A DNA stretch of 64,000 nucleotides, taken from an uncultured Patescibacteria group bacterium. GTDB taxonomy: Bacteria > Patescibacteriota > Microgenomatia > UBA1400 > PJMF01. This document shows, piece by piece, positions 6,207 to 30,991 of the stretch. Within the stretch, counting starts at the first letter, position 1. Each line of letters begins with the position of its first letter. The stretch is from positions 8,818 through 72,817 of the forward strand of contig CAJQIG010000001.1 in assembly GCA_905478415.1 (NCBI GenBank), in the 5' to 3' direction. The position numbers and the translations under genes were made by a program. The notes beneath the pieces are model-generated. The model was not told the origin of the DNA, ran no database searches, and saw only the letters and a list, made by a program, of their open reading frames with translations.

Positions 6207-6819
6207 AATTGTGCTGTAGTATTGCTTTCATAGTAGTACTGGTTAATTCTTGAGTTTTTATCTGGCCTTTGTTGTAGAAGCTATAAAAGAGATGGAGGAC
6301 TTCTAAACTATCAAGCTTTCTGGCTTTCATCCCAAGTTTTTCTAGAGCTTTAATTACCATATCTTGAGTTAAATTGAGTTGAGCCTGTGCAAGCTCAAAG
6401 GTATTGCCTTTGGTTTCTGGTTTGTAAGGTAGGACGATGTAAAACCTTCGAGATAGAATTTTGTTGCCAGATACAAGCTGGCGAATAAACTGGGTGTAAT
6501 CACTAATTTGTTCTAGATATTGCTTCTCATTTTCTGTTTCCTTGAGTAAGTCGATGGAATCAACGTATTGATCAATATCCACTTCACGAATACGAATCAA
6601 TATTTGTAGTTGGGAAGGTAGTGAGTTTAGAAATGTTTGAAAGCTATCAATCAACACATCCTGTTCGGCTTCACTCTTGAGTTCGAAGTTAACTGAGGAC
6701 GTTTCAATAACTAGTCGATGCTCGTTGTTTGGTAAAACCAAAATCCCGTCACGCACTTCTTTGATGGCAATTTGGTTTCGAGAGCTAACTTTATTAAGAG
6801 ATTTTTTCAAAGGCCACAT
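6199..6819 (-). CDS. VirB4 N-terminal domain encoded as a separate ORF (split or frameshifted virB4)
   Basis: IAIKEVRDGILVLPNNEHRLVIETSSVNFELKSEAEQDVLIDSFQTFLNSLPSQLQILIR matches the conserved N-terminal region of VirB4/PrgJ/TrsE. Overlaps the ATPase ORF by 8 nt (ATGTTTAA). Confidence 0.55.
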   Translation of the reverse strand: MWPLKKSLNKVSSRNQIAIKEVRDGILVLPNNEHRLVIETSSVNFELKSEAEQDVLIDSFQTFLNSLPSQLQILIRIREVDIDQYVDSIDLLKETENEKQYLEQISDYTQFIRQLVSGNKILSRRFYIVLPYKPETKGNTFELAQAQLNLTQDMVIKALEKLGMKARKLDSLEVLHLFYSFYNKGQIKTQELTSTTMKAILQHNYV

Positions 6820-7300
6820 TGAGTCCTCCTTTCTTGCCAGAACGATAGGTTAGATTGAAATCAGTTTTTTCTAGAAGATGGCGTAGTTTCAGTACATCTT
6901 TAATATCAGGTGTAGCAAGGTATTTTTGTACTTCTTTTTCAAGCTGTTCCTGTTTAACAGTTACTGTTTGAACTTCTGGCTTTATTATTTCTCGATTAGT
7001 TGCTGAATTCTTGTTGTAGATGTAATACTTTGGCCTTGCGTTGTATCGAATCAATATGCTAAGCCAACTGGCGATGATTCTGCCTTTGACTCTGACAGCA
7101 AGCGTGATGCTTAAAACAGCAAAGATGCACGTTAGAACAAGCTTATAGATAACAAAAGTCATGGTAGGTGGTAGGAAAGCGTAGATAAATGTTGCAATCA
7201 AGACTGGCATGAGTAGAAGCATGATTTGTGTCAGACTAAAGTTGCCTGCAATCTTATCTTCTACTGTAGTTATTTGAGCTGGTATGACTTGACTTCTCAT
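6794..7300 (-). CDS. VirB3-like small membrane protein
   Basis: 168 aa with hydrophobic segments, immediately upstream of virB4 as in Gram-positive and minimal T4SS. Confidence 0.4.
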   Translation of the reverse strand: MRSQVIPAQITTVEDKIAGNFSLTQIMLLLMPVLIATFIYAFLPPTMTFVIYKLVLTCIFAVLSITLAVRVKGRIIASWLSILIRYNARPKYYIYNKNSATNREIIKPEVQTVTVKQEQLEKEVQKYLATPDIKDVLKLRHLLEKTDFNLTYRSGKKGGLNVAFEKIS

Positions 7301-8598
7301 ATGTTTACTACCTTCTTTGATACTTTGGCCGCTGCATTCTGAGCTTGTGCCCTGCTGGCAGTTGCAGCGTTATCTGTAGTCATCACGTTAATAATTTGGT
7401 TCCCGAGTTTTTTCATTGCTCCCGAGTTAGCGGTGTACATGACCATCTGCATCATGAGATTTGGAGTTTTGAGTAAGGTGATAAAAAGTCCGATTCCCAC
7501 TGCTATTGAAATGATCGAGTTTTCACTATGGTCTGGAAGAGTCAAAAACGAGCTAGCTAATTGAATTATCACCACATGGACAAAAACAATAAAAATACTG
7601 ACAAGATACGTTTTTATGGCAATCAAGGCAAAGTCTGAAAATTTAGGTAGGGCTGAAAGTAAGAAAATAAAAGGTGACAAAACTGCTCCAAGGGAAATAA
7701 AGATCAAACGGCTGATGTACATAAGCAGTAGCACTATTGAGACAATTAAAAACAGCACCATGAAGATCAAAATTATCAGGGGTGTAGTTCCAGAAATGAC
7801 TGCTGTTGGATTAAAAGCAGCTTCAATCCATGCATGGTTCAGTCCTCCTGTTGAATCTAAGATAACTTTCACCAACATATTGCAGGTGATAATGGCGTAG
7901 TCTGCTAGGAAGAGTGAGATGTTAGTGGCTAAGAAAGTTAGCCCAAGTCTTGGGAGAAGTTGTTTGAGCTCCACTTCTTCAAAACCAAACGAACTTGCAC
8001 TCATAACTTGTAAGCCCATCAGAGCCACTACCAAGATAAATAAAGCGTCCACAATACCGACTGAAATAAACCAAAAATTACGAACCACCTCATTGTCTAA
8101 AAGTGTTGGCGTGGTTGTTAAATACCCAAGCACTCCATTGACAATTGGTTCAGTAGAGCTTTCAACAATGTTTTGGATAAAGCCACCTATGGCATCAATT
8201 AAAACTTGAGTGAGTCCTTCGGATGGTTCAACTGTTTCAATGCTGACAATATCAATCGGTGTGCCAGACCCAGAGGTATTTTGAGAATTCAAAGCATGTT
8301 GGAATACAGAAGTAACCACGTTTGCAGCTAAAACCAAAGTTAAACCAATGACAGCATTGCGAATAGTCTTCTTGGCAGATTCAAGAACTTCGGGTTTTCC
8401 AGCTGAGGTGATGTAGAGATACCCTGCTTTAACTAAAAAAAAGACCGCTGATGCGGTCGCGATTAGAGTGATGATTTGTAATGTACTATTTGTGTATTCT
8501 ATGACATCGGGATTGGTTGATTGAGCAAAAACAGGAGAACTAAACAAAAGGAAAGCAAGTGCGGTTGTTCCAATAGTTGTTAGTACTCTTCTCATCAA
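7297..8598 (-). CDS. VirB6/TrbL-like polytopic membrane protein with N-terminal signal peptide and a pilin-like domain
   Basis: Signal peptide ...SPVFAQS. Residues about 40-95 are paralogous to the adjacent 113-aa pilin (GYLYITSAGKPEVLESAKKTIRNAVIGLTLVLAA vs GYITSSGNPEALEKSKKTILYSAVGLTLVLGA). At least 6 further TM segments, glycine-rich. Confidence 0.55.
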   Translation of the reverse strand: MMRRVLTTIGTTALAFLLFSSPVFAQSTNPDVIEYTNSTLQIITLIATASAVFFLVKAGYLYITSAGKPEVLESAKKTIRNAVIGLTLVLAANVVTSVFQHALNSQNTSGSGTPIDIVSIETVEPSEGLTQVLIDAIGGFIQNIVESSTEPIVNGVLGYLTTTPTLLDNEVVRNFWFISVGIVDALFILVVALMGLQVMSASSFGFEEVELKQLLPRLGLTFLATNISLFLADYAIITCNMLVKVILDSTGGLNHAWIEAAFNPTAVISGTTPLIILIFMVLFLIVSIVLLLMYISRLIFISLGAVLSPFIFLLSALPKFSDFALIAIKTYLVSIFIVFVHVVIIQLASSFLTLPDHSENSIISIAVGIGLFITLLKTPNLMMQMVMYTANSGAMKKLGNQIINVMTTDNAATASRAQAQNAAAKVSKKVVNI

Positions 8599-8620
8599 TA
8601 CGTATTCCTTTTCTAATCAA

Positions 8621-8962
8621 TTACATTCCAGATCCAAATGCAGTGGTTGCGACTTGGCTTACCATATTTGAAATAACAAACGCACCAAGTACTAAAGTAA
8701 GTCCGACTGCGGAGTACAGAATAGTTTTTTTGGATTTTTCTAATGCTTCTGGATTTCCTGAGCTCGTAATGTAACCGACACCACCCCAGACGATGAAGCC
8801 TGCTGCTATAAAGCCAGACAAGGTGACCATGATCTGAATCACTTCTTGGATAAAAGATTGAATTTGTCCCACTTCAGCCGACTGAGCAAAGACTGGATTA
8901 GCCACGACTAAGGAAGTAAGAAATATGCTTTGGAGAACTATGAGTTTTTTCATAAACACCAC
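8621..8962 (-). CDS. VirB2/TrbC-like pilin
   Basis: 113 aa, signal peptide ending VFAQS, two hydrophobic helices, conserved SSGNPEALEKSKK motif as in T4SS pilins of Gram-positive/minimal systems. Confidence 0.5.
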   Translation of the reverse strand: MVFMKKLIVLQSIFLTSLVVANPVFAQSAEVGQIQSFIQEVIQIMVTLSGFIAAGFIVWGGVGYITSSGNPEALEKSKKTILYSAVGLTLVLGAFVISNMVSQVATTAFGSGM

Positions 8963-9216: not shown

Positions 9217-10794
9217 ATGTCTGGAGAACAAAAACGATTACTTGAAAAACAACTTTGGGCTGTAGCCAATGTTCTCCGGGGAAAAATGAATGCAGACGAA
9301 TATAAAAACTATATTCTTGGCTTCATTTTCTACAAATATCTTTCAGAAAAACTTGCTCGCTATATTGACGAAAAACTTCTGGCTAGTGAAAAATTCTCTT
9401 TTGCAGAGGTAGACGACTCAACTGACGAAGGTCAACATATTGTTGAGCATATTAAGAAAGCTACCATTGATCACTTGGGCTTTTTCCTCAAACCTACAGA
9501 GCTTTTTTCTTATATTGTCAGAAAAGGTAATGGCGAGATTAAAGGCCATGATACTTTTATTTTAGAAAACCTCAAAAATGTTCTTAACTCTATTGAGCAA
9601 ACCTCAATGGGCACAGCGAGTGAAGATGATTTTAAGGGACTATTTGATGACGTTGATTTAACATCCACAAAACTTGGTAAGTCAGAGAACAAAAAGAACG
9701 AGGTGATTGTTGAGGTTCTTACTTTGCTCAGTGGTATTGATTTTAAACTAGAAGACACCAAAAGTGATTTGCTCGGTGATGCTTATGAATATCTTATCGG
9801 TGAATTCGCAGCAGGAGCAGGCAAAAAAGGTGGTGAATTTTATACACCAGCTCAAGTTTCAAGACTTCTTGCAAAGATTGTGACCCATGGCAAAAAACGA
9901 GTTAAATCTGTTTATGACCCAACCTGTGGTTCTGGCTCTCTTCTTCTAAGAATTGGTGAGTATGCCGATGTTGTTTCCTACTATGGACAAGAACTTAACC
10001 CAACCACATATAACCTTGCTCGCATGAACATGATATTGCATGGGGTGCACTTTGATCATTTCAGCATTCGAAATGGAGATACCCTCGAAGATGACATGCA
10101 TTTAGACTTACAAGCAGAAGCAGTGGTGGCTAATCCTCCTTTTTCTGCAGACTGGAAAGGCGATAAAGATCCGACTCTAGCTCATGATGAAAGATTTGCT
10201 CAGTATGGAAGACTTGCTCCAAAAGGTAAGGCTGATTACGCATTTGTAACTCACATGCTTCACCATCTTTCAGATAGTGGAACAATGGCAGTGGTGCTAC
10301 CACATGGTGCACTGTTCAGAAGTGGCGCCGAAGGTACAATTCGAAAATATATTATTGAGAAGCAAAACTACCTTGATGCCGTCATAGGTTTGCCAGAAAA
10401 TCTTTTTTATGGAACAGGTATTCCAACTACAGTTTTAGTATTCAAAAAATGCAGACAGGAAGATGATGAAGTTTTGTTTATTGATGCATCCAATGGGTTT
10501 CAGAAGGTAGGTAATCAAAATCAGCTTAATGAGGAGCATCTAGAAAAGATATTTCAAACATATGTAAATAGGAAAGAAGTTGATAAATACTCTCACAGAG
10601 CAAGCTTAGAAGAAATTGTGGAGAATGACTACAATTTAAATATTCCTAGATATGTGGACACTTTTGAGCAAGACGATCCTGTTGACTTGGATTCAGTTTC
10701 AAATGAACTGAAATCTTTGCAGGAAGATGAGGAGAAATTAAAAAAAGATATTACTGACTTTTGCAGAAAATTAGGAATAGAAAAACCTTATTAA
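9217..10794 (+). CDS. hsdM: type I restriction-modification system, N6-adenine DNA methyltransferase subunit
   Basis: N-terminal HsdM domain, NPPF catalytic motif (VVANPPFSADW), AdoMet motif DPTCGSGSLLL. Confidence 0.9.
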   Translation: MSGEQKRLLEKQLWAVANVLRGKMNADEYKNYILGFIFYKYLSEKLARYIDEKLLASEKFSFAEVDDSTDEGQHIVEHIKKATIDHLGFFLKPTELFSYIVRKGNGEIKGHDTFILENLKNVLNSIEQTSMGTASEDDFKGLFDDVDLTSTKLGKSENKKNEVIVEVLTLLSGIDFKLEDTKSDLLGDAYEYLIGEFAAGAGKKGGEFYTPAQVSRLLAKIVTHGKKRVKSVYDPTCGSGSLLLRIGEYADVVSYYGQELNPTTYNLARMNMILHGVHFDHFSIRNGDTLEDDMHLDLQAEAVVANPPFSADWKGDKDPTLAHDERFAQYGRLAPKGKADYAFVTHMLHHLSDSGTMAVVLPHGALFRSGAEGTIRKYIIEKQNYLDAVIGLPENLFYGTGIPTTVLVFKKCRQEDDEVLFIDASNGFQKVGNQNQLNEEHLEKIFQTYVNRKEVDKYSHRASLEEIVENDYNLNIPRYVDTFEQDDPVDLDSVSNELKSLQEDEEKLKKDITDFCRKLGIEKPY

Positions 10795-12039
10795 ATGAAC
10801 AATAATTTCAACATAAAACCCTTATTTCCTCAGCTAAGATTTCCAGAATTCAAAGACCCTTGGCAAAAAAAACAACTTAGCGAAGTTGGAACTGTAGTTT
10901 CAGGTCTGACATACAAACCTTCTGATGTGGTAGATGATGGTATTTTAGTATTAAGGTCTTCAAATATCAGGAAGGCTAAACTTTCTTTCAAAGATAATGT
11001 TTATGTTAATCCCAAAACTGTTTCGTTTAATGCAGTAATGGAAAGCGATATACTAATTTGCGTTCGTAATGGCAGCAAGAGATTAATAGGGAAAAATGCT
11101 TTAGTCGATAAAAATGCTGAAGGATCAGCATTTGGGGCTTTTATGAGCGTATTTAGAAGTGAATCAAATAAATTTATCTTCCAACTTTTTAATTCAGATA
11201 CTTATAAGAAACAAGTTCACAGAAATTTAGGTGCAACCATTAACTCTATTAACGGCAGTGATTTAAAAAAATTCACTTTCGGTTTTCCATCAAAAGATGA
11301 GCAGGAAAAAATTGCTTCATTCCTCGCTTCTGTAGATAATTGGATTGAAAATTTAGAGAAGCAAAAAAACTCGCTTGAGGAATATAAAAAAGGAATTATG
11401 CAAAAAATCTTTTCTCAAGAGATAAGATTTAAGGATAAAAATGGGTGTGAGTACCCTGAATGGAAAAAAATCAAGCTTAGAAAGCTGTCAAAAGTAATTA
11501 CTAAGGGTACAACACCAACTAGTTTAGGTTTTTCATACCTAAAAGAAGGTGTTAATTTCATTAAGGCAGAAAACATTAATCAATACTCAGAAATTTCTAT
11601 TTCAGAAACAATGAAGGTCTCGTCTGAATGTAATCAAGCTTTAAGTAGATCATCTTTGGAAGAAAATGACATTCTATTTTCAATTGCAGGTACTTTGGGT
11701 CGTACGGCGATAGTGAAAAAAAAGGACCTTCCAGCTAACACCAATCAGGCTTTAGCAGTTATTAGATTGAATAGCACTGTAGATGTTTTCTTCATAGAAA
11801 AATTTTTAAATTCTCAAATGATTGAAAAATATATTTTACAAATGCTTTCAGTAGGTGCTCAACCAAATCTATCATTAAAACAAGTTGGAAATATTGAAGT
11901 CAACTTACCATCAATAAAAGAGCAAATGCAAATTGCTTCATTTCTATTTTCAATTGAGAATTTAGTCGAATCAAAAAGCAAGCAAATTACAAAAGCAAAA
12001 GAGTGGAAAAAAGGACTGTTACAACAAATGTTTGTATAG
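10795..12039 (+). CDS. hsdS: type I restriction-modification system, specificity subunit
   Basis: Two target-recognition domains separated by a conserved central helix (LEEYKKGIMQKIF) and a C-terminal repeat (AKEWKKGLLQQMF). ATG directly follows the hsdM stop. Confidence 0.85.
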   Translation: MNNNFNIKPLFPQLRFPEFKDPWQKKQLSEVGTVVSGLTYKPSDVVDDGILVLRSSNIRKAKLSFKDNVYVNPKTVSFNAVMESDILICVRNGSKRLIGKNALVDKNAEGSAFGAFMSVFRSESNKFIFQLFNSDTYKKQVHRNLGATINSINGSDLKKFTFGFPSKDEQEKIASFLASVDNWIENLEKQKNSLEEYKKGIMQKIFSQEIRFKDKNGCEYPEWKKIKLRKLSKVITKGTTPTSLGFSYLKEGVNFIKAENINQYSEISISETMKVSSECNQALSRSSLEENDILFSIAGTLGRTAIVKKKDLPANTNQALAVIRLNSTVDVFFIEKFLNSQMIEKYILQMLSVGAQPNLSLKQVGNIEVNLPSIKEQMQIASFLFSIENLVESKSKQITKAKEWKKGLLQQMFV

Positions 12040-12048
12040 ATAAAAGAT

Positions 12049-14844
12049 ATGGCACAATCAGAACTACAACTAGAAAATGAATTAATAGCACAACTTGGAA
12101 ACTTGGGTTTTGATAGGGTTTCTTTGCCAGATGTTGAATCACTAAATCATAACCTTAAATCACAACTAGAAAAGTTTAATAAAACAACTTTTTCAGATAC
12201 AGAATTCTCTCGCATACTCAATCACCTAGAAAAAGGTGATCGCTTTGTAAAAGCTAAGACTCTGCGTGATAGATTTGTGTTGACTCGAGATGACGAAACA
12301 AAGTTCTGGGTGCGATTTTTCAACATGGATAAGTGGTGTAAAAATGAGTATCAAGTTACCAATCAGGTTACGCAAGCTGGAAGGTATGAAAATCGTTATG
12401 ACGTTACTCTTCTCATAAATGGTCTTCCTTTAGTTCAAATTGAACTCAAGCGCCGTGGCGTTGAAATGAAAGAAGCTTTCAATCAGATTCAACGTTATCA
12501 CAAGCATTCTTTCTCTGGAACCCTATTCGAATATGTCCAGATTTTTATCATTTCCAATGGTGTAAATACAAAATACTTTTCTAATAATCCAAAACAATCA
12601 TTTGAACAAACCTTCTATTGGACAGATGAGGAAAACAAAAAGATCACTCAGCTCAATGAATTTGCAGAAGTATTTTTAGAGAAATGCAAAATCTCAGCCA
12701 TGATAGCTGAATATATTGTGTTACATGAATCACTAAAAATTCCAATGGTACTCCGCCCTTATCAGTACTATGCAGTCAGAGCTATTGAGCAAAAGGTTAA
12801 AGAAACTAACCAGAATGGCTATATTTGGCATACCACTGGTTCTGGAAAAACCTTGACTTCATACAAAGCCAGTCAGATTCTTTCACAGTTACCCGAAATT
12901 AAAAAAGTTATCTTTGTAGTTGATCGCAAAGACCTCGATATCCAAACAACAAAAGAGTTTAATCATTTTTCTGATGGTTCTGTTGATGGCACAGATAATA
13001 CTCGCAACTTAGTAAAACAACTCAAAGATCCTAATAGAAAACTCATCGTTACAACAATTCAAAAGCTAGATATTGCTGTTTCCAGAGAATCGTATCTTAA
13101 ACAATTTGAAGATCTTCAAGATGAAAAAGTAGTCATTATTTTTGATGAATGTCACCGTAGTCAGTTTGGATTAACCCACAATAGAATAAAGAGCCATTTT
13201 AATAAAGCCCAGCTCTTTGGATTTACTGGAACACCTATCTTCGCTGATAACAATGTTGGTGGGGTTACAACAAAAGATGTTTTTGGTGAATGCTTGCACC
13301 GCTACATTATTACCCACGCTATTGATGACAATAATGTGCTTGGCTTTGCAGTTGAGTATGTAGGTAAGTACAAGAAAAAAGACCCTGACACGCTAGATGC
13401 TGATATTTTTGCCGAAACAATGGTTGAAGGAATAGACACTAAAGAAGTTCTTGAAAGTGATGAGCGAATTCAAAAAATAGCTGAGTATATTCTTCATGAT
13501 TGGAGGCGTAAAACAAAGAATGGCAAGTTTAATGCTCTTTTTTGCACTCCAAGCATTGAGGTATTAAAGACATACTACACGCTACTTTCTGCTAAGAAAC
13601 CTAAAGATTTTAAAATCGCTACAATTTTTACCCACCAAGCAAATGAGGATGGTAGTGCAGATATGCTTGATGTTGACGTGTTTGCTGATAAGGATGATTC
13701 GTTAAATCAGCATTCAAGAGACTTCTTAGAAAGCTGTATCAAAAACTACAACAAAGATTTTGGCACTAATTACTCTACTGACCGATTCTATGATTATTAT
13801 CGAGATCTACAGAAAAGAATTAAAAACAAAGAAGTTGATCTAACTATTGTGGTGAACATGTTCTTAACTGGATTTGATAGCCCGAGACTTAACACTTTGT
13901 ACGTTGACAAGAATTTACGTTACCACGGATTAATCCAAGCATATTCTAGAACCAATCGTTTATTAAATTCTGATAAGCCTCATGGAAACATCGTTTCCTT
14001 TAGAAACCTTAAACTGAATACTGACAAAGCTCTGGCTTTGTTTGGTGATGAAAATGCTAAAGAAGTTGTTTTCAAAAAACCATATGAGGTTCAGAAAAAG
14101 GAATTTGAAGAAAAGCTTGCTCACTTACGAGTAAAAGTACCCACTGTTTCTTCAGTTGATGATTTGCGAGGTGAAGAAGATAAGGCTGCTTTTGTTAAAA
14201 GTTTTAGAGATTTGCTTCGTATTAAGTCATCATTAGAAACCTTTGCAGAATTCTCTTTTGATGACTTGGGAATTACAGAACAAGAATTTTATGATTACCA
14301 AAGTAAGTATCTTGATATTCATGAAGAAAGAAAAACTCACGAACCAGAAAAAGAATCTATACTTGATCAAATCGACTTTGAGTTGGAATTAACTGTTCGC
14401 GATGTAGTTGATTTTGATTACATTATTCAGTTGATTGCTGGACTTAAAGACATTAGCTCTGATGTGGTTCGTGAGAAGAAGACTGAAGATATCCTTAGAT
14501 TATTTGATCGCGATGTGAAACTTCGTAAAAAGAAAGAACTCATCCGTAAATTTATTGAAGAGAACCTACCTAAAATTAGAGAAGATGAAAATGTTGAAGA
14601 AGCCTTTGAGAAATTCTGGGCAAGTGAACGCTCATCTGCTCTGCGAGAAGTAGCACAAGCTGAAAATATTCCACTAGAAAAGTTTGAAAACATTATTGGC
14701 GAGTATCTATACACACAAAAACTCCCACATGGACAAGATATTGTTGATCTTCTCCCAGAAGCTCCAAGAATTCTTGAGCGCCAAAGTATTATAGATCGCG
14801 TGAGGAGTGCTATTGAGAATATTGTAGATATGTTTGAGTGGTAG
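12049..14844 (+). CDS. hsdR: type I restriction enzyme, endonuclease/helicase subunit
   Basis: Walker A HTTGSGKTLT, DEAH-box FDECHRS, 931 aa, downstream of hsdMS. Confidence 0.9.
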   Translation: MAQSELQLENELIAQLGNLGFDRVSLPDVESLNHNLKSQLEKFNKTTFSDTEFSRILNHLEKGDRFVKAKTLRDRFVLTRDDETKFWVRFFNMDKWCKNEYQVTNQVTQAGRYENRYDVTLLINGLPLVQIELKRRGVEMKEAFNQIQRYHKHSFSGTLFEYVQIFIISNGVNTKYFSNNPKQSFEQTFYWTDEENKKITQLNEFAEVFLEKCKISAMIAEYIVLHESLKIPMVLRPYQYYAVRAIEQKVKETNQNGYIWHTTGSGKTLTSYKASQILSQLPEIKKVIFVVDRKDLDIQTTKEFNHFSDGSVDGTDNTRNLVKQLKDPNRKLIVTTIQKLDIAVSRESYLKQFEDLQDEKVVIIFDECHRSQFGLTHNRIKSHFNKAQLFGFTGTPIFADNNVGGVTTKDVFGECLHRYIITHAIDDNNVLGFAVEYVGKYKKKDPDTLDADIFAETMVEGIDTKEVLESDERIQKIAEYILHDWRRKTKNGKFNALFCTPSIEVLKTYYTLLSAKKPKDFKIATIFTHQANEDGSADMLDVDVFADKDDSLNQHSRDFLESCIKNYNKDFGTNYSTDRFYDYYRDLQKRIKNKEVDLTIVVNMFLTGFDSPRLNTLYVDKNLRYHGLIQAYSRTNRLLNSDKPHGNIVSFRNLKLNTDKALALFGDENAKEVVFKKPYEVQKKEFEEKLAHLRVKVPTVSSVDDLRGEEDKAAFVKSFRDLLRIKSSLETFAEFSFDDLGITEQEFYDYQSKYLDIHEERKTHEPEKESILDQIDFELELTVRDVVDFDYIIQLIAGLKDISSDVVREKKTEDILRLFDRDVKLRKKKELIRKFIEENLPKIREDENVEEAFEKFWASERSSALREVAQAENIPLEKFENIIGEYLYTQKLPHGQDIVDLLPEAPRILERQSIIDRVRSAIENIVDMFEW

Positions 14845-14857
14845 TAAGGGAAAAAGA

Positions 14858-17116
14858 ATGTATATATCAAGGGTTTACATAAGGAACTATCGCAATTTTG
14901 AAGAGTTTGATTTATTTATTCCTGATGGAAGTCCTTTAACCATTATCGGTGGAAATAATTGTGGAAAAACTAATTTTCTCCAAGCCATCAGGCTTGTTTT
15001 AGATTCTGGCATAGCTCCTTGGGACAAAAGACTTACAGAAGAAGATTTTTGTTGGAGTATAGGTGAAGAACCTTGGAAAAGCGGCGAGCAAATTGTTATC
15101 ACAGTAACTTTTAGCAATGTTACTGATAAAGAGGAAATACAATCACTATTGCACTCAATTGCTCCTGTGTATGACGAGGAGAGTGTTTTGTCTTCTAAAT
15201 CTGCAGATAGTCTGGAAGCTAATATTTCATTTGTGTTTGCACCATCTACCTTGAACAAGGAAGGCGACTATGACCTGATCGAGGACTACATTAGTTTTCT
15301 AGTTGCTGGTCGGTATCATCCTTCTGGATATTATTACCTACCAGACGGTAGTACTAAGGAATATGGTGATACGGTTATTTCTGGCTTATATTCTTGTCCT
15401 AGTAAAGAGGAGTTCTACAAGTATTTTTATTTGTCAGAAGACAATATTAAAAAACTCGAGGATGATTCGTCAGCCACATTTGAAAAGCAACTTGCTAAAC
15501 AGTCGTATCCTAACAAGGTGCGAAAACACATTAATTTACTTGCTCTAGATGCTCTTAGGGATGTCAAAAACGACTTTTACTTCGGTTATCGTTCTTTAGT
15601 GTCACAACTAATCAGAGGCGGCATAAAAAATAGTAAAAAAAACCAGATATCCAAAGAGGTGTCTGCTGCTTTTAAGAACCTTAGAACAAGCGGAGCTATT
15701 CCTGAAGCTAACACCATTCTGGATGATATAGAAACAAGACTACAGAACAAAGACATAAATCTTTTGTCAGATAAAGCAGACTTAATTATTGGTACTCCCA
15801 GAGTCACTCTTGAGAATATCGGTCGCTATTTCAATTTCCTAGTTAATCTTAAGGAAGATTTGAAAAGCGACCAGGACATGGAGACCATTGGTCTTGGTTA
15901 TCAGAACCTTGCGTATATTTCTGCCATTTTTGCCCTTTTTGAACTGAAGAAGGAACTTTCTTTAAATGATACCGATGAGAAAATTCGTATTGTATATAAT
16001 CTGCTACTGATCGAAGAACCAGAAGCACATCTGGATGTTCAAAATCAAAAGTATCTTCATACTCAAATCGAAAACAAGACGCAGAAATTGATGGAAGTGA
16101 AAGCGGCCGATGATGATGAAACTGAGGGTGAAGATGCTCCACAGTTTTTTGCATTTACTCAAGTAATTCAAACTTCTCACTCAACTCACTTAGCTTCCAA
16201 ATCTGACTTAAAAAATCTTGTTGTATTACAAAAAGGTGTCAATCAAGCAAGAGCTATAAACATTGATAGTGTATTACGACTTGATGATGACACATACAGC
16301 CACAATAGGAGAATATTAAAACAGTATCTTGATGCTACAAGGTCTTCATTACTCTTTGCAAGAAAAGTAGTTTTAGTTGAAGGACTCTCTGAAAAATATT
16401 CAGTAGGTACCCTTATTAACACGCATTTAAAGCAACAACGTCCTGAGAGCAATGTTGACATCGATAGCGAAGGAATTGAGGTTGTTGAGGTGGGTGGAAA
16501 GATCTTTGAGCCATTTAATGCCCTTTTTCAGAATGACCAATCTATTGGGCTTAACAACAAATGCTTGAATCTCCGAGATGGAGATTCTCATTTAGAGTCT
16601 CAAGTAGTCGCTGATTATGAGACAAAATACAACGACCTTAATCCTTCCTCTACTACCACACCTCAGCTGGATACTAAAAAAAACATTTACACCTTTGAAA
16701 TCGACTGTTTTTTCTTACCAATACCAGAAGATATAACTAGAAATAATATTGAGTATCTCAAGCTTATTTTGTATAGGTTTATGAAGGATGGAGACTACTT
16801 CAAAACAGATGACACTTTTACAAGGAAACTAGCTGCGATTGATAGCTTTGCCCAAGAGATTGTTAATCATGGAGTAGACAAGGACAAGTTTGAGAAGTTT
16901 TTCACAGATATTCTAGGCCATGAAGTCTCTAAGCCTTCCATATCTTTATATCTGTCCTCTTTGCTGAAAGCTAAATTGCTCGAAGACGTTACTGAAATTG
17001 AAACTTGGGGTGACACTCCGGACACAGAAGTTGGCATTACACCTTTTAGTGACCTGTCTGAGTTCATCATGCCCAAGTACATCAAAGATGGAATCTCATG
17101 GCTAATTACAGACTAA
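14858..17116 (+). CDS. OLD-family ATPase-Toprim nuclease, GajA-like (Gabija / class 2 OLD)
   Basis: Walker A TIIGGNNCGKTN, D-loop LLLIEEPEAHLD, Toprim ARKVVLVEGLSEKY. ATG at 14858 with an AAGGGA RBS 13 nt after the hsdR stop; the track ORF uses a TTG at 14834. The stop overlaps the UvrD-like gene by 19 nt. Confidence 0.7.
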   Translation: MYISRVYIRNYRNFEEFDLFIPDGSPLTIIGGNNCGKTNFLQAIRLVLDSGIAPWDKRLTEEDFCWSIGEEPWKSGEQIVITVTFSNVTDKEEIQSLLHSIAPVYDEESVLSSKSADSLEANISFVFAPSTLNKEGDYDLIEDYISFLVAGRYHPSGYYYLPDGSTKEYGDTVISGLYSCPSKEEFYKYFYLSEDNIKKLEDDSSATFEKQLAKQSYPNKVRKHINLLALDALRDVKNDFYFGYRSLVSQLIRGGIKNSKKNQISKEVSAAFKNLRTSGAIPEANTILDDIETRLQNKDINLLSDKADLIIGTPRVTLENIGRYFNFLVNLKEDLKSDQDMETIGLGYQNLAYISAIFALFELKKELSLNDTDEKIRIVYNLLLIEEPEAHLDVQNQKYLHTQIENKTQKLMEVKAADDDETEGEDAPQFFAFTQVIQTSHSTHLASKSDLKNLVVLQKGVNQARAINIDSVLRLDDDTYSHNRRILKQYLDATRSSLLFARKVVLVEGLSEKYSVGTLINTHLKQQRPESNVDIDSEGIEVVEVGGKIFEPFNALFQNDQSIGLNNKCLNLRDGDSHLESQVVADYETKYNDLNPSSTTTPQLDTKKNIYTFEIDCFFLPIPEDITRNNIEYLKLILYRFMKDGDYFKTDDTFTRKLAAIDSFAQEIVNHGVDKDKFEKFFTDILGHEVSKPSISLYLSSLLKAKLLEDVTEIETWGDTPDTEVGITPFSDLSEFIMPKYIKDGISWLITD

Positions 17117-19041
17117 AACTAGGAACAGATTTTGACCTATCACCGAAACAGATAGAGATAGTAGAGCGCAATAAAGATACTTTAGTTCGTGCACTCCCAG
17201 GTAGTGGTAAAACGACTATCTTAACTCTCAAAATAAAAAACCTATTACTAGATAATCCTCAGCTAAATAAATTATGCTGCATATCTTATACCAATGTAAA
17301 TGTAGAAGACCTGGAATCTAGTTGTTCACTTATTCTAGACAGTGAGCAAATAAAAAAAATTGATTTCTTAACATTCCATAGTTTTTGCTTACAGTACATT
17401 TTGACTCCATTTTCTTATCTTTACAGGAGCAGCAAGGGACTTAGACCGTATAAAAAAATCTTTAACTTCGGCGAGCATGGATCAGATCTCATTGATTACT
17501 TAAGTGACAAAGGTGTTGAAACAGCTGAGATTCAAAAAATTATTGATACTGAAAAGATTTATTACAATTTCAAGTTTATAAATAACTCCTGGAAAATAAC
17601 CAGCAATACCCATAAGGCATCTACCGTCAGTAAATACCTCAACTTTTTAAATTCCGAAAGACTCATAGACTTTAACTTGATCAGCCTTTTATCTCTATTC
17701 ATAGTTCAACAGAACCCTGTTGTTCGGCGCGTTTTAAATAAGTCCATTGATTGGATGTTTATTGATGAGTTCCAAGATGTTTCAGAGATACAATGCAAAA
17801 TAATTGAAGCTCTTAGTAAGAGTCGCATGAAGAATAACTCAGAGACGAAGTGGTTTATGGTTGGAGATCCAAATCAGTCAATTTATGGCTTTGCCGGAGC
17901 AAACCCTAGAAGTATGTACGATATGCGTAACTTCTTTAAAATGTTACACGATGGCGAAGAGTGTGAAATTAAGCTCGATAAAAGCCACCGTTGTTCTGAT
18001 GAGGTTTTTGAATTCGCTAAAAAGAATTACAACTCTGTTTTGCGTAAAGTCAAAAATTCACAACTGGTTCAACAGTTGCCAGGAGAGGATATTGTCGGGT
18101 ATTTAGAGGATATGGAGATTGCAGACGACTTGCAAGGAAACGGTGGTGACGGAAAAGTAATTATTAAAACTACCATTTCAGCCGTGAGTGAGATTGTAAA
18201 CTTAAAGTTTAATGAGTTACTAGATCAGGAAGTCTGTTGTATTGGTATCAATCGTTTTAATTCTATCGATGTTTATAAGCAATATATGCTTCATGACAAC
18301 ACCGATGAAGGAGACGGCTTTAGCCTCTACGCCGAACTTTATAAAGATTACGAAGAGAGATATGGGTTCAAATACTTTTCACTTTTTGTTAGATACTTAA
18401 TCTTAAAACACCATTTTTACAACAACAGACTCAAGTATCAGAAGTCACTTGAGAAATTTATTTACTCTTTGGGCTTGCTTCTCTCGGATAAATTAAATGT
18501 TGAAATGCAGCCACAAGTACTATCAAGTATTACTGTTGATGCCATCGAAATAACTTCACCACTGGCCCCGACAAGCACTGTCTTTGATGAGTTTATTGGC
18601 TTTACTGGTCGATTAGTTACAAGCTTGAATAGTAATTTGGAGTTTACTGATGGAGAGGAAGCTATCTTTAGCACAATCTCAGAAGCTGACAGGATAACCA
18701 ATATCAATGGTGTTACTGAGCCAACGCTCGCTAACTTCATCGCCTACATTACTCGATCAACTCCTGAGAAGCTAACTTTTGAAATAAAGCATATTCATAA
18801 GATTAAGGGCTTGGAATATGAACAGGTTATTGTTCAAAGAATTGAAGATCTTCCTCATAAGTCAAACTACGGAGTACATTTTGCTATCTTTGGAACAAGG
18901 TCGTTTCAGGCAAATGCTGGTCAAATCTATGACTACGTCCAGGAACTCAATAAGCTCTATGTCATGTTAACAAGACCAAGAAAGAATCTTTATATTATAA
19001 AAAATCAATATAAGCAAAGTCATTTTTTGGCTGCTCAATAA
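17098..19041 (+). CDS. UvrD/Rep-family helicase, GajB-like partner of the OLD/GajA-like nuclease
   Basis: Walker A ALPGSGKTTIL, motif II IDEFQDVSEIQ, C-terminal UvrD_C-like region; translationally coupled to the upstream OLD-family gene. Confidence 0.7.
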   Translation: MANYRLKLGTDFDLSPKQIEIVERNKDTLVRALPGSGKTTILTLKIKNLLLDNPQLNKLCCISYTNVNVEDLESSCSLILDSEQIKKIDFLTFHSFCLQYILTPFSYLYRSSKGLRPYKKIFNFGEHGSDLIDYLSDKGVETAEIQKIIDTEKIYYNFKFINNSWKITSNTHKASTVSKYLNFLNSERLIDFNLISLLSLFIVQQNPVVRRVLNKSIDWMFIDEFQDVSEIQCKIIEALSKSRMKNNSETKWFMVGDPNQSIYGFAGANPRSMYDMRNFFKMLHDGEECEIKLDKSHRCSDEVFEFAKKNYNSVLRKVKNSQLVQQLPGEDIVGYLEDMEIADDLQGNGGDGKVIIKTTISAVSEIVNLKFNELLDQEVCCIGINRFNSIDVYKQYMLHDNTDEGDGFSLYAELYKDYEERYGFKYFSLFVRYLILKHHFYNNRLKYQKSLEKFIYSLGLLLSDKLNVEMQPQVLSSITVDAIEITSPLAPTSTVFDEFIGFTGRLVTSLNSNLEFTDGEEAIFSTISEADRITNINGVTEPTLANFIAYITRSTPEKLTFEIKHIHKIKGLEYEQVIVQRIEDLPHKSNYGVHFAIFGTRSFQANAGQIYDYVQELNKLYVMLTRPRKNLYIIKNQYKQSHFLAAQ

Positions 19042-19066
19042 ATATTAAGTAATAAACAATCTATAT

Positions 19067-20578
19067 ATGCAAATTTCTAAATCCGACTACATGCTCTTTC
19101 TTCGCCATCCTGCATGGTTGTGGCTAAAGAAGTATGACAAAAATAAATTACCTCCAGTTGATGACAATACGCAAGCCATGTTTGATGCAGGTCATGACTT
19201 TGAACAATATGCTGAAAGCCTATTTCCCAATGGGGTTCGACTTGGGTTCAATAACTATGATGAGTACTTGAGTTTACCTGCTCGGACTCAGCAAGCTTTA
19301 CAACAAGGCGCAGAAGTTATTTTTCAGGGAAGGTTTGAAGTTGATAGCTTAACTTGTATAACTGACGTATTGTTCAAGCATCCTGATGGCACTTTTGATC
19401 TAATTGAGATCAAAGCCAGCACCAAAGCTAAGCCAGAATATGAATATGATCTTGCTTTTCAACTCTTGGTATTAGAAAAAGCAGGTCTAAAGATCCGCAA
19501 TGTAGCTGTGATGCATGCAAACAAAGAATATGTGCGTGAGGGGGAAATTGATCCTGCTGGTTTGGTTGAAAAAACAGATATTACAGATAAAGTTCGCACC
19601 TTGATGAGCTCTACACTTTTACAAGTAGATATGGCTCTTGAAGTTTTGGCAAATAAAACTATGCCAGATGTTTCACCAAGATATATCAATCAACTTGGTA
19701 TTCCAAACAAATCATCACAATGGCTTGAAGAATGGATGGAGATTTTCAAAAACATCAAAGGTGAATATGACACCTATTCCATTTACAACCTTGCCTATCC
19801 AAGCCCTGAGCAACTTGGGAAACTAGAAGATCTTGGTATTTCTTCAATTCACGATATGACGGAAGACCAAGCTTTAAGAGATAAACAAAGGGTGCAGATT
19901 AGAACCACGAAAACTGGTCAACGAATTATTGATAAAGATAAGATTAAAGCTTTCTTGGATACATTCCAGTATCCACTTTACTTCTTTGATTACGAAACAC
20001 TCTCAACAGTAGTTCCTCAATTTGATGGTTATAGTCCATACAAGGATTATCCATTCCAATACTCATTACATGTAATTGAAAGCTCAGGTGCAGAAGTAAA
20101 ACACTTGGAGTATTTGCACAACCAAGCCAGTGATCCAATGCCAGGATTACTAGCTCAGCTTAAGCAAGATATTGGCGATTCTGGTACTGTGATTGCCTGG
20201 AACATGAGTTATGAAAAAGGTTGTAATGATCGAATGGCTGAGTTGTTTCCAGAATATGCAGATTTCCTGGCAGACCTTAATGATCGTATAGATGATTTGA
20301 TGACCCCTTTTGCCAAGATGTGGTTTTTTGACAAAGATTTCTTTGGCAGTGCCTCGGTCAAGAAAGTTATGCCCGTTTTAGCACCTGAGTTAAGCTACAA
20401 AGAGCTCAATGTTTCTGATGGCTTACTAGCTCGCAGAATGTGGACACAAACCGTTTTGGAAGGAAAAAACAGAGAAAGACGACCAATGATTTTGGATGAT
20501 TTAAGTCGTTACTGTACACTTGATACTTTTGCGATGGTGAGGATATTGGAGGAGTTAAGAAAGATTGTTACTACCTAG
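19067..20578 (+). CDS. RecB/Cas4-like PD-(D/E)xK nuclease fused to a DnaQ-like DEDDy 3'-5' exonuclease (DUF2779-like architecture)
   Basis: PD-(D/E)xK element FDLIEIKAST in the N-terminal half. C-terminal half has Exo I YFFDYETLS, Exo II-like VIAWNMSYE and Exo III YCTLDT (YxxxD). Confidence 0.5.
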   Translation: MQISKSDYMLFLRHPAWLWLKKYDKNKLPPVDDNTQAMFDAGHDFEQYAESLFPNGVRLGFNNYDEYLSLPARTQQALQQGAEVIFQGRFEVDSLTCITDVLFKHPDGTFDLIEIKASTKAKPEYEYDLAFQLLVLEKAGLKIRNVAVMHANKEYVREGEIDPAGLVEKTDITDKVRTLMSSTLLQVDMALEVLANKTMPDVSPRYINQLGIPNKSSQWLEEWMEIFKNIKGEYDTYSIYNLAYPSPEQLGKLEDLGISSIHDMTEDQALRDKQRVQIRTTKTGQRIIDKDKIKAFLDTFQYPLYFFDYETLSTVVPQFDGYSPYKDYPFQYSLHVIESSGAEVKHLEYLHNQASDPMPGLLAQLKQDIGDSGTVIAWNMSYEKGCNDRMAELFPEYADFLADLNDRIDDLMTPFAKMWFFDKDFFGSASVKKVMPVLAPELSYKELNVSDGLLARRMWTQTVLEGKNRERRPMILDDLSRYCTLDTFAMVRILEELRKIVTT

Positions 20579-20608
20579 TAAAAATGAAATGTAAGGTAAA
20601 ATTAAATT

Positions 20609-22858
20609 ATGGCTACATTATTTAAAGAGGTTAACTATAACTTATCAACACTGATTCAACAAATTGACTTAGGAATTATCGGATTACCCGACATTCAACG
20701 TCCTTTTGTATGGAAAGATACTAAAGTTAGAGATTTATTTGACTCTATGTATCGAGGGTATCCGGTTGGGTACTTCTTATTTTGGGCAAATGGTTATCAG
20801 GAAAATACTAAAACAATCGGTGATCAAAATAAACAAAAAGCAGCCCAGCTTCTTATTGTCGATGGACAGCAACGATTAACCTCACTTTTTGCTGTAATGA
20901 AGAGTAAAAGCATTATTCGTGAAAATTATGAAACAGAAAACATCGTTATTTCATTCAAGCCTCTTGAGGAGAAGTTTGAAATACCTGATGCTGCCACAAA
21001 AAGAAGTCCTGAATACATTCAAAATATATCTGAACTTTGGAGTCCAGATATTAACATCTTTTCATTCACTCAGAATTTTATCGAGAAACTACAACAAACT
21101 CGAGAACTATCTGGTCAGGAAATAAATCAAATTCAAGAATCAATCAGCAGACTAAAAAATTTGGAGCATTATCCATTTTCAGTTCTTGAACTATCAGCTG
21201 CTATTGATGAAGAACAAGTTGCTGATGTTTTTGTGAGAATTAATAGTCAAGGTAAAAAACTTAACACAACAGATTTTATCTTGACATTAATGTCTGTTTT
21301 CTGGGAGGAAGGAAGAAAAGATTTAGAAAACTTCTGTGCAAGCGCACGGCAACCAAACACAAGCGAAGCATCTGCATTCAATTACTTGATTACTCCAGAT
21401 CCAGAGCAAATGTTGAGAGTGAGCGTCGGTTTTGGTTTTAGAAGAGCAAGAATGAAGTATGTCTATAGTATCTTGAGGGGTAAAGATTTAGAAACTGAGG
21501 AATTTTCTGAAGAACGAAGAGATCAACAGTTTGAAAAATTAAAAAATGCTCAAGCAAAAGTCTTAAGTCTAACTAACTGGCATGAGTTCCTCAAAGCATT
21601 GCAAAGAGCAGGTTATGTACGCTCTGACTACATTAGTTCACAAGTAAATGTTCTTTATGTATACGCAATGTATTTAATTGGTAAGTATGATTTTGAGGTT
21701 CCACTGTTTGAACTGAGAGAAATAATTGCTAGATGGTTTTATATGACCTCACTTACAGGACGATATACTGGATCACCAGAATCTCAGATGGAGGCGGACT
21801 TGGCAAACTTAAGAGATATTTCTACAGCTGAAGAATTTGTTTCACTTCTGGATAAAATAATTGCAACTCAATTTACGAGTGACTTCTGGCAGATAAATCT
21901 TCCAAATGATTTAGCTACTAGTTCTTCAAGAAGTCCCTCTCTTTTTGCTTACTATGCTGCGCTAAATGTGTTGGATGCAAAGGGTTTGTTTTCTCAACTT
22001 AAGGTTTCAGATTTGCTTCATGCCGGATTGAAGTCAAATAAATCAGCACTAGAGAAGCATCATCTTTTCCCAAAAAATTACTTGGTGAACATAGGTATTG
22101 AAGATCAACGTGTTCGTAATCAAATTGCTAACTTTGCCTTAGTTGAATGGAGTGACAATATTAAGATTTCAGATAGTTCCCCGCAAGAGTATATGGAGAT
22201 CATGAAAGAACGATTCGATCATGATGAACTTCGTGAAATGTATTATTGGCACGCATTACCCGATGACTGGCAAAACATGAATTATGATGAATTTCTGGAG
22301 GTGAGAAGGCAAAAAATAGCAGATGTTATCCAAACTGGATATAACAAACTATCTAGCATAGATCCAGAGGTAGATGCTGAAATTACGTCAATAGATCAAT
22401 TAATTCAAGGTGGTGAGTCAGAAAATATCGAGTTTAAATCCACTATGCGCGTTAATCTCTATACAAATGCAAAAGATCAAAAAATTGAAATGGCTTTTCT
22501 AAAAACAATTGCAGCTTTTCTGAATACTAATGGAGGAGTACTTGTTGTCGGAGTAAATGATGATGGAGAGTCATTAGGCTTGGATCCTGATGGTTTTGAA
22601 AACAGTGATAAATTTTATCTACACGCTGTGAATCTTATTAGAGACAAAATGGGTTCAGAGAATGCTTTGTATATTCATCCTCAGTTTGAAGATTATGTGG
22701 GAAAGCAGATTTTCGTAGTTAAATGCAAACCTGCACTAAAACCTGTATATGTAAAAGACCAAGGTCAAGAAAAATTCTATGCAAGAACAGGAAATAGTAC
22801 TACTGAATTGAATGGTCGAGAGTTAGAGGACTATATTAATCTGAGGTTTAGAAGGTAG
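20609..22858 (+). CDS. GmrSD-type modification-dependent (type IV) restriction protein: DUF262 + DUF1524 with a C-terminal AlbA_2/Schlafen-like domain
   Basis: DUF262 DGQQRLTS motif at about residue 90; C-terminal HNH-like DUF1524 region (HHLFPKNYL...N...EW); terminal about 150 aa (SENIEFKSTMRVNLYT...GGVLVVGVNDDG) resemble the AlbA_2 putative DNA-binding domain. Confidence 0.7.
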   Translation: MATLFKEVNYNLSTLIQQIDLGIIGLPDIQRPFVWKDTKVRDLFDSMYRGYPVGYFLFWANGYQENTKTIGDQNKQKAAQLLIVDGQQRLTSLFAVMKSKSIIRENYETENIVISFKPLEEKFEIPDAATKRSPEYIQNISELWSPDINIFSFTQNFIEKLQQTRELSGQEINQIQESISRLKNLEHYPFSVLELSAAIDEEQVADVFVRINSQGKKLNTTDFILTLMSVFWEEGRKDLENFCASARQPNTSEASAFNYLITPDPEQMLRVSVGFGFRRARMKYVYSILRGKDLETEEFSEERRDQQFEKLKNAQAKVLSLTNWHEFLKALQRAGYVRSDYISSQVNVLYVYAMYLIGKYDFEVPLFELREIIARWFYMTSLTGRYTGSPESQMEADLANLRDISTAEEFVSLLDKIIATQFTSDFWQINLPNDLATSSSRSPSLFAYYAALNVLDAKGLFSQLKVSDLLHAGLKSNKSALEKHHLFPKNYLVNIGIEDQRVRNQIANFALVEWSDNIKISDSSPQEYMEIMKERFDHDELREMYYWHALPDDWQNMNYDEFLEVRRQKIADVIQTGYNKLSSIDPEVDAEITSIDQLIQGGESENIEFKSTMRVNLYTNAKDQKIEMAFLKTIAAFLNTNGGVLVVGVNDDGESLGLDPDGFENSDKFYLHAVNLIRDKMGSENALYIHPQFEDYVGKQIFVVKCKPALKPVYVKDQGQEKFYARTGNSTTELNGRELEDYINLRFRR

Positions 22859-22861
22859 TGT

Positions 22862-23233
22862 ATGAAAATTGATGAAGCTGTAATTGCGTTTAAACTAAAT
22901 AAAACCTACAAACCCACAATGACTCCGATGCAACTCTATGATGCAACAAGGCATTCATGGAAGGTGGGAGAAAGAAGAAACTCAGCAGAGTATGCTTTTG
23001 CTGTATTTCAGGGAGAAGTTAAGGAAGTATACAAAATTGCTATTTGGCTTCCTCAAAACTCAACATTAAATACGAAAGATAAGGAAAACATTGAGGATAA
23101 AACTATAAATACTGATAGATGGGAATTTGTTGGTACAATTGCACCTGAGAAAATCAGATATAAATATATTGGAAAAGATATATCTGATTTTTTCAAAAGT
23201 AAACAAAATCCAGTTGCTTATATCAACTGCTAA
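22862..23233 (+). CDS. hypothetical 123-aa protein tightly linked (3-nt gap) to the GmrSD-like gene
   Basis: ORF only; no recognisable motif. Confidence 0.35.
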   Translation: MKIDEAVIAFKLNKTYKPTMTPMQLYDATRHSWKVGERRNSAEYAFAVFQGEVKEVYKIAIWLPQNSTLNTKDKENIEDKTINTDRWEFVGTIAPEKIRYKYIGKDISDFFKSKQNPVAYINC

Positions 23234-30144: not shown

Positions 30145-30348
30145 AGTGTTGTTTACTATGGGCAGGCTATTTTCTGTGTTGTGAGGTATTGTATCATTCC
30201 CTCCCCTTATTATATAAGGGAATAGAGGTAAAGATTATTTTAGTGTTTATCTGGGAAAGTGCGTGAATTTTGTCCTAGCTGGCTGGGGCAGTTTTTTTAA
30301 GATAAATATTGATTATTTCAGGCTATAATAATGCTATAGGAAAAATTC

Positions 30349-30987: not shown

Positions 30988-30991
30988 CGAT

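Follow-up and report, generated by a model that had tools for sequence, protein, structure and literature searches.

Do defense genes that stand close together in one orientation form a single immune unit that is inherited as a whole, or are they modules that are exchanged one by one? The question is raised by a block at positions 9217-23233 of a 64,000-nt stretch of DNA from an uncultured Patescibacteria group bacterium; this whole stretch is called the window here, and all positions refer to it unless a relative is named. The block encodes a type I restriction-modification (R-M) system, the two proteins of a Gabija pair, a double nuclease of the DUF2779 family, a GmrSD-type enzyme with an AlbA_2 domain, and a 123-aa protein. 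A preliminary description of the same DNA had read these genes as one unit. Our comparison with related loci shows instead that the Gabija pair, the DUF2779 gene and the GmrSD module have different histories. The block is probably a mosaic defense island, carried as cargo by a tRNA-Glu-integrated conjugative element in a Patescibacteria-like genome, and its modules have been exchanged independently.

The mosaic becomes visible when the surroundings of DUF2779 are compared. We collected 80 loci with DUF2779 relatives from species-representative genomes, nearly all of them metagenome-assembled genomes (MAGs) of Patescibacteria; these loci are labeled L plus a number. Among the relatives that are at least 56% identical and have at least 3 kb of upstream sequence, at least 18 of 25 possess a recognizable defense gene among the three upstream genes, and Pfam annotation of four more loci raises this number to 22 of 25; for the more distant tier it is 11 of 39. 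The upstream neighbor is co-directional in 65 of 75 cases; the median gap is 13 nt, and overlaps of 1-4 nt with the DUF2779 start are frequent. The closest relatives keep the pilin backbone and DUF2779, and the genes in between differ: the window has type I R-M and Gabija, L017 type I R-M and a PDC-S06/AAA_13 ATPase, L019 SNF2 and an MmeI-like methyltransferase, and L047 Ppl. In a second subclade, whose members are 80-98% identical to each other and have a Trypsin_2 gene downstream, the slot holds type III R-M and a different Gabija (GajA 1.7e-202, GajB 1.1e-132) in L021, SNF2-MmeI-DUF4365 in L022, type I R-M and SIR2-HerA in L024, and SNF2-MmeI and Gabija in L025; the DUF2779 proteins of L022 and L024 are 96% identical, and their cargo is different. 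Other DUF2779 loci contribute MmeI-DEAD-T5orf172, GmrSD and helicase-nucleases. PADLOC recognizes SIR2, HerA (1.2e-182), Ppl (5.4e-103) and PDC-S06 (3.1e-59) in these cassettes. Directly 5' of DUF2779, the relatives thus carry at least nine kinds of defense cassette (type I, type III, MmeI-like, two Gabija types, SIR2-HerA, Ppl, PDC-S06, GmrSD), and DUF2779 itself varies in sequence with the element backbone, not with the cassette. Because this slot turns over among relatives, it is best read as a defense-cassette hotspot, with DUF2779 as its conserved right flank.

Hotspots on mobile elements, e.g. hotspot 5 of the SXT integrative and conjugative element (ICE) or those of P2 and P4, combine fixed flanking genes with fast-swapped defense cargo. 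The slot described here resembles them in its conserved flanks around rapidly exchanged cargo, but it differs in the host group, Patescibacteria, and in that the right flank is itself a nuclease which recurs in several unrelated backbones.

L017 also dissects the block directly. This locus keeps hsdM, hsdR and DUF2779 at 86-92% nucleotide identity without the Gabija and GmrSD-reader-DUF2726 segments; homology with the window comprises the stretch from the pilin genes to hsdM, then hsdR, then DUF2779, and breaks exactly at gajAB and at GmrSD-reader-DUF2726. Within the R-M system, hsdS is only 29% identical to its counterpart at the same syntenic locus, where hsdM and hsdR reach 85% and 98%. The coordinates of all features are listed below.

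Table 1. Genes of the defense block and of the conjugative element around it.
Feature	Coordinates	Strand	Basis
hsdM, type I DNA methyltransferase	9217..10794	+	N6_Mtase, HsdM_N; MTase_I
hsdS, specificity subunit, two target-recognition domains (TRDs)	10795..12039	+	Methylase_S x2; Specificity_I
hsdR, type I restriction/translocase subunit, EcoR124-like (type IC)	12049..14844	+	Pfam, REase_I
gajA, class-2 OLD nuclease (ABC ATPase + TOPRIM), 752 aa	14858..17116	+	Pfam, PADLOC
gajB, UvrD-like superfamily 1 (SF1) helicase, 19-nt overlap with gajA	17098..19041	+	Pfam, PADLOC
DUF2779, N-terminal Cas4/RecB-like PD-ExK + C-terminal DEDDy 3'-5' exonuclease	19067..20578	+	PF11074, residues
GmrSD-family (DUF262) type IV enzyme + C-terminal AlbA_2	20609..22858	+	Pfam, HEC-05, BrxU
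Stand-alone homologue of the CMoRE/PD-T4-3 C-terminal 5hmC/5ghmC-sensing domain, 123 aa	22862..23233	+	PADLOC, profile, fold
DUF2726 protein, N-terminal transmembrane (TM) helix	23230..23685	-	Pfam DUF2726 1.8e-25
Type IV secretion system (T4SS) genes, conserved left flank: M23 peptidase, VirB4/TraG-like ATPase, PrgI, two pilin genes	3774..8962	-	Pfam
Rest of element: ArdC-like, Replic_Relax, coupling protein, serine recombinase, tRNA-Glu	28627..36256	.	Pfam, tRNA call

What kind of protein forms this flank? The DUF2779 protein matches PF11074 over the full profile (1.5e-37) and Cas4 weakly in Pfam. It contains both an N-terminal PD-(D/E)xK triad and the C-terminal DEDD(y) acidic residues, and none of the positions concerned (D100/E114/K116 and D308/E310/E383/Y482/D486) varies among 44 homologues, so that the earlier description of a RecB/DEDDy two-nuclease fusion stands. 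It had also been put forward as a novelty. This is true insofar as no defense role is on record, but the architecture itself has been described: a study of 2014 assigned DUF2779, which it found joined with a DUF83 (Cas4-like) domain, to the 3'-5' exonuclease clade within the RNase H-like superfamily (PMC3985635), and the Mycoplasma homologue MMSYN1_0389, Cas4-like plus DEDDy and quasi-essential in the minimal cell, was described in 2026 (PMC13621843). Furthermore, solo-Cas4 proteins beside R-M genes in organisms with small genomes have already been read as defense-linked (PMC5704561), and the association of DUF2779 with defense is thereby anticipated in outline. The window protein shares with these relatives (PMC13621843, PMC3985635, PMC5704561) the two-nuclease architecture, the catalytic residues and the absence of an Fe-S cysteine cluster. 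MMSYN1_0389 is chromosomal and quasi-essential, whereas the clade of the window is multi-copy, located on mobile elements and found 3' of defense cassettes. A sequence search of the PDB gave no match at E up to 1, and PADLOC v2 contains no DUF2779 model. We considered a CRISPR-associated Cas4 and rejected it: the protein has only three cysteines (C97, C386, C483), none in a CxxC motif, and hence lacks the four-cysteine Fe-S cluster; nor is there linkage to cas1/cas2, as seed and Pfam neighbor scans of the 80 loci revealed no cas genes.

As to its function, the role we favor, if tentatively, is that of an end-processing exonuclease acting on DNA ends that neighboring DNA-cutting systems produce; an independent defense nuclease seems improbable. 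A serious competitor is that DUF2779 lies outside defense altogether, i.e. that this nuclease serves housekeeping or the maintenance of the element (repair, recombination, conjugative DNA processing), belongs to the backbone and merely marks a permissive site. Such a nuclease could well account for a sequence that follows the backbone rather than the cargo, and for the missing PADLOC model. Homologues at 50-53% identity adjoin dnaG, rpoD, FKBP or bipA, and these distant contexts, together with the quasi-essential state of MMSYN1_0389 (PMC13621843), suit housekeeping better than defense. Housekeeping accounts less readily for the same flank position in at least three backbones (pilin/T4SS, Trypsin_2-type and serine-recombinase/Prim-Pol), for the many upstream genes that overlap the DUF2779 start by 1-4 nt, for the defense-linked solo-Cas4 genes beside R-M (PMC5704561), and for two copies on one contig, which occur on CAZUHV01 (L017, L026), JACKFW01 (L023, L036) and JBBDPM01 (L089, L095), contigs of 0.1-1.1 Mb. 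On viral contigs DUF2779 is rare (12 loci), and the contexts look like the same defense settings, not like phage genomes. Housekeeping is nearly as probable for DUF2779 as end processing, the role that we carry forward.

Several further genes recur around DUF2779. A Trypsin_2-like peptidase of about 363 aa stands directly 3' of it in nine loci (L021, L022, L024, L025, L028, L030, L036, L044, L073); the next gene usually encodes an unannotated protein of some 361 aa, and the two may constitute an uncharacterized two-gene module. Ten loci, including L032, L035, L045, L046, L055, L078 and L080, have a gene of about 442 aa with ParB_N and N6_N4 methyltransferase domains, which lies a few genes upstream of DUF2779 in the opposite orientation and may encode an orphan methylase carried by the element. 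The labels Pseudomonadales or Gammaproteobacteria given to several of the MAGs, among them those with L017, L019 and L023, look unreliable; the genes of these MAGs match Patescibacteria.

The Gabija pair illustrates how a cassette enters the slot. GajA matches AAA_15 (9.7e-27) and OLD-like_TOPRIM (4.3e-10) in Pfam and the PADLOC GajA model (2e-64), as a class 2 OLD protein does, and the product of the gene directly downstream matches UvrD-helicase (5.3e-35) and the PADLOC GajB model (1.8e-50). As in the Gabija system of the Bacillus cereus VD045 type, an OLD ATPase-TOPRIM gene is followed by an overlapping UvrD-like helicase gene, and both give strong PADLOC matches; the window GajA (752 aa) is longer than most PADLOC GajA profiles (530-710 positions). 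The mechanical ORF of gajA starts with TTG at 14834, and the most likely start codon is ATG 14858, the one chosen in the public annotation of the 584-kb source scaffold (ENA ERZ23498645). On an IMG/VR contig (L187/L202), the nucleotide sequence of GajA-GajB agrees to 96-100% with window positions 14858-19057, and the L202 copy of GajB is 99% identical in amino acids. Nucleotide identity between window and L202 falls abruptly to 58-77% from 19058, inside DUF2779; to the left of the gajA start codon homology is absent and the upstream genes are unrelated. Since near-identical gajAB genes are thus framed by diverged or unrelated sequence, the pair is a recently exchanged 4.2-kb cassette between hsdR and DUF2779, and in this mobility, too, it departs from the VD045 type. 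The right junction of the cassette is the gajB/DUF2779 intergenic region. The pair is not co-inherited with hsdR or DUF2779, and the same comparison rules out GajA-GajB-DUF2779 as a co-inherited three-gene system. We found no conserved motif upstream of gajA among the window, L201 and L202, and a search for att-like or cassette-boundary repeats across 8900-24500 yielded only a 58-nt repeat internal to hsdS (11284/11905) and chance-level pairs.

According to the rival that stays closest to the single unit proposed earlier, the eight genes form one integrated operon with interdependent modules, in which, for example, Gabija and DUF2779 serve as back-up when restriction is blocked, as PrrC does with EcoprrI. 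We consider this quite unlikely. The layout speaks for it: in the ORF list of the window, 9217-23233 contains eight co-directional ORFs, all on the + strand, with spacings of 0, 9, 13, -19, 25, 30 and 3 nt, i.e. short gaps and one overlap. (Strand, coordinates and spacings agree with the preliminary description; its count of nine genes does not, and its own seven gaps also imply eight.) L021 (type III), L025, L187 and L188 moreover show the same order of R-M, Gabija and DUF2779, with R-M systems of different types; Gabija behind an R-M system is thus not unusual in this lineage, although its place behind hsdR had been called so. In L017 the place of Gabija is taken by the AAA_13/PDC-S06 ATPase, from the Pfam family of PrrC/RloC-type proteins. 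Interdependence is, however, hard to reconcile with a Gabija pair that is shared almost unchanged by two elements whose DUF2779 genes and upstream regions are not, with an hsdR-DUF2779 backbone that persists without Gabija in L017, and with a DUF2779 gene that stands behind at least nine unrelated systems; Gabija (according to the PADLOC models) and GmrSD-AlbA_2 are also self-sufficient elsewhere. A consensus scan of the + strand intergenic gaps found no terminator-like site (hits at or below chance); promoter and terminator scans alike stayed at or below shuffle expectation, and they are uninformative on a single transcript, neither for nor against it. The G+C content of the block is 0.33-0.37, as compared with 0.38-0.41 on both sides. 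Independent exchange of the modules thus remains the reading that we prefer.

The first three genes offer little that is unusual. HsdM matches N6_Mtase (3.8e-112) and HsdM_N (3.5e-23) in Pfam and MTase_I in PADLOC (1.4e-171). HsdS matches Methylase_S in two stretches, in keeping with two TRDs, and Specificity_I (3.9e-96). HsdR combines an N-terminal nuclease, an SF2 (superfamily 2) motor and a C-terminal assembly domain (Pfam HSDR_N, SWI2_SNF2, T1R_D3-like and EcoR124_C, the last at 1.8e-57; PADLOC REase_I 1.7e-304). The set resembles EcoR124I-type (IC) R-M in its HsdM, its two-TRD HsdS and an HsdR with EcoR124_C; nothing notable differs, and relative to L017 the TRDs are swapped. Pfam and PADLOC searches with each protein of the block bore out every domain assignment made beforehand: type I R-M, the Gabija-like nature of the OLD and UvrD proteins (no profile moved 14858-19041 to an unrelated family), and GmrSD with AlbA_2. 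In addition, homologues of both candidates for novelty, the nuclease fusion and the 123-aa ORF, co-occur with defense genes elsewhere.

The GmrSD-AlbA_2 protein matches GmrSD_N (3.9e-32) and SLFN_AlbA_2 (8e-18) in Pfam and HEC-05 in PADLOC (4.2e-34). Its N-terminal part matches the BrxU structure 7p9k (2.4e-8) and carries the DGQQR motif of DUF262 at residues 85-89 (VDGQQRLTS, 84-92). By the DUF262 domain with DGQQR, HEC-05 and the BrxU match it resembles the type IV enzymes GmrSD and BrxU; it differs by the added AlbA_2 domain, a very common architecture, and by a putative C-terminal nuclease region too divergent for GmrSD_C. The DUF1524 His-Me finger of GmrSD_C gives a sub-threshold match only (residues 477-534, E 0.25); a weak BLAST match to a bona fide GmrSD_C region (E 0.019) and a His-Me-like motif, HHLFPK...N...N, are also visible. 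With more than 7997 homologues of about 750 aa, the family is very large and uniform.

More can be said about the 123-aa protein, which had been listed as an unknown and which we identify as a homologue of a modification-sensing domain. It aligns with positions 133-252 of the 256 of PADLOC PD-T4-3 (1e-15). A profile built from its homologues matches the PDB entries 9u7u (2.7e-17) and 9u75 (1.4e-15) at chain residues 126-258. Its AlphaFold (AF2) model is compact, with a predicted local distance difference test score (pLDDT) of 86.9, and Foldseek retrieves 9u75 (template modeling score, TM, 0.79; E 3e-9), followed only by faint YTH-like matches. Both entries represent CMoRE, a GIY-YIG type IV enzyme, whose C-terminal domain binds 5hm-dCTP in crystals and gives specificity for DNA with 5-hydroxymethylcytosine (5hmC) or its glucosylated form (5ghmC) (PMC12923530). 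The likeness to CMoRE/PD-T4-3 (PMC12923530) resides in this sensing domain, in sequence (E 2.7e-17) as in fold (TM 0.79). The window protein has no GIY-YIG match, i.e. no counterpart of the N-terminal nuclease of CMoRE, lacks the segment equivalent to Y127, and is encoded by a separate small gene behind a GmrSD-type nuclease. It corresponds to the CMoRE/PD-T4-3 sensing domain alone, and is a one-domain relative and not a CMoRE enzyme.

Homologues of the sensing domain were not found in the CMoRE paper (PMC12923530). In our exhaustive profile search the domain appears in 2701 representative clusters at E up to 1e-3. Among the best 145 of these 2701 clusters are 46 with GIY-YIG, five with protein kinase, four with HEPN and three with HNH domains; three with HSDR_N and two with NucS_C, both PD-(D/E)xK nuclease domains (these two sets may overlap); and 26 stand-alone proteins of at most 140 aa. 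Such a spread of architectures is that of a modular sensor domain. The GIY-YIG proteins P0139 and P0141 carry it in two or three tandem copies, and other fusions involve Ser/Thr kinases, HEPN_Swt1 and leucine-rich repeat (LRR) domains.

The reader gene directly follows GmrSD-AlbA_2 in the window, L012 and L097, and in L047 two small genes lie between them. In L015 and L080 a reader-containing gene adjoins a NucS-like nuclease-DUF5655 protein instead of GmrSD-AlbA_2. Taken together, this tentatively suggests an optional accessory that acts in trans on the neighboring nuclease. In L015 (2632-4158 of that locus), an RVT_1 gene (508 aa) stands between hsdS and hsdR, followed by the NucS-like-DUF5655 gene and a 136-aa reader homologue. 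A read-through fusion was also considered, as the GmrSD-AlbA_2 and 123-aa ORFs share one frame in the window and are parted only by TAG and one codon (22856-22864); it is unlikely because the two ORFs are in different frames in L012, and we treat the shared frame as coincidence.

Least probable of all is that the 123-aa ORF is a decaying, functionless remnant of a CMoRE-like gene after loss of the GIY-YIG domain: its nearest relatives of other lengths (59-64% identity) are indeed proteins of 247-250 aa with GIY-YIG and C-terminal domain, and it is without the Y127 segment and absent from L177 and L181, but four independent loci (window, L012, L047, L097) retain an intact gene of exactly 123 codons with pN (nonsynonymous differences) of 0.12-0.23 against a saturated pS (synonymous differences) of about 0.74, the gene has a GAAGG ribosome-binding site and starts 3 nt after the GmrSD stop, 26 of the 145 best family representatives are short stand-alone proteins as well, and the predicted structure is confident and compact. 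The gene is under purifying selection and, therefore, not a relic.

Besides the housekeeping-like contexts of distant DUF2779 homologues, four points weigh against our interpretation of the block. GmrSD-AlbA_2 stands alone in other phyla, hence its pairing with a reader is optional. Of the six loci whose GmrSD-AlbA_2 proteins are closest (at least 82% identical), two have no reader, namely L177 and L181. Met1 of the 123-aa protein falls just after the position of CMoRE Y127, the sole named 5hmC contact (through its main chain). Finally, the neighborhood counts are based on our own ORF calls and a limited seed set.

The surroundings of the block are those of an ICE. To its left lie the T4SS genes, whose nucleotide sequence matches L017, L019 and L047 at 79-88% identity as far as the point where the cargo begins, and the element as a whole contains a T4SS ATPase, pilin, coupling protein, relaxase-like protein and a recombinase next to a tRNA. 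The serine recombinase gene (34518-36245, +) overlaps tRNA-Glu (36182-36256, -) by about 64 nt, and this overlap probably marks the integration junction of the element; beyond tRNA-Glu lie genes of the chromosome, CTP synthase among them. On the left, the element ends at the start of the window or outside it. A megablast search of a plasmid database with the block retrieved only hsdR fragments of 34-43 nt and no known plasmid relative.

The DUF2726 and reader genes converge and share 4 nt. The DUF2726 gene lies inside the segment that differs from L017, and its product has no PADLOC match. DUF2726 genes adjoin CMoRE-like genes in L100 and L101, in the latter in the order DUF2779-DUF2726-CMoRE-like, and the gene is possibly part of the island, although its membership is uncertain. 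Between the island and the ArdC-like gene, 24542-28410 encodes two NAD-dependent epimerase/dehydratases, a radical SAM protein and a NUDIX protein; the segment is absent from L017, where another epimerase and another NUDIX protein are encoded elsewhere, and it may belong to the variable cargo as well, perhaps with a role in sugar-nucleotide chemistry. Two defense-like genes lie beyond the T4SS: one for a PLD protein at 1000-1494 (+; PLDc_2 3.4e-9, PADLOC MkoC C-terminus 2.9e-11) and one for a 596-aa AAA_15 ATPase at 1959-3749 (-), which matches AriA (7.9e-25) and GajA models.

How might the modules of this island (type IC R-M, a two-gene Gabija cassette, DUF2779, and GmrSD-AlbA_2 with a stand-alone reader) act? 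As judged from their domains, the type IC system would cut unmethylated DNA. The reader would, in a scenario to which we lean only cautiously, bind hypermodified cytosine in incoming DNA and help GmrSD-AlbA_2 or another nuclease to locate its target. DUF2779 might, with similar caution, process the DNA ends made by the neighboring cutters; alternatively, it would be a hotspot marker only. In combination, type I would deal with unmodified DNA, GmrSD and reader with hypermodified DNA, and Gabija with phages that escape both. A bolder version, which we hold to be rather doubtful, makes DUF2779 an active, shared part of Patescibacteria immunity, either as a common "finisher" exonuclease on which many different DNA-cutting defense systems depend where genomes lack RecBCD/AddAB, or as a protein that favors the capture of defense cassettes on its own 5' side, and makes the reader a trans-acting specificity subunit that redirects GmrSD-type enzymes to hypermodified DNA.

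For the most part, the block contains familiar biology, if in a host lineage that is unusual. A moderate degree of novelty lies in two leads: a cassette slot anchored by DUF2779, and a CMoRE-type reader domain that stands alone and is widely distributed. The locus offers a testable example of how immunity is organized in bacteria with ultra-small genomes, namely by cassettes that are swapped whole in a slot of a conjugative element. The widespread but uncharacterized double nuclease DUF2779 is the best marker of this slot; it provides a handle for finding new defense genes in Patescibacteria and, at the same time, a hypothesis for its own function. The CMoRE sensing domain, widespread and modular, enlarges the pool of candidate 5hmC/ghmC readers for biotechnology.

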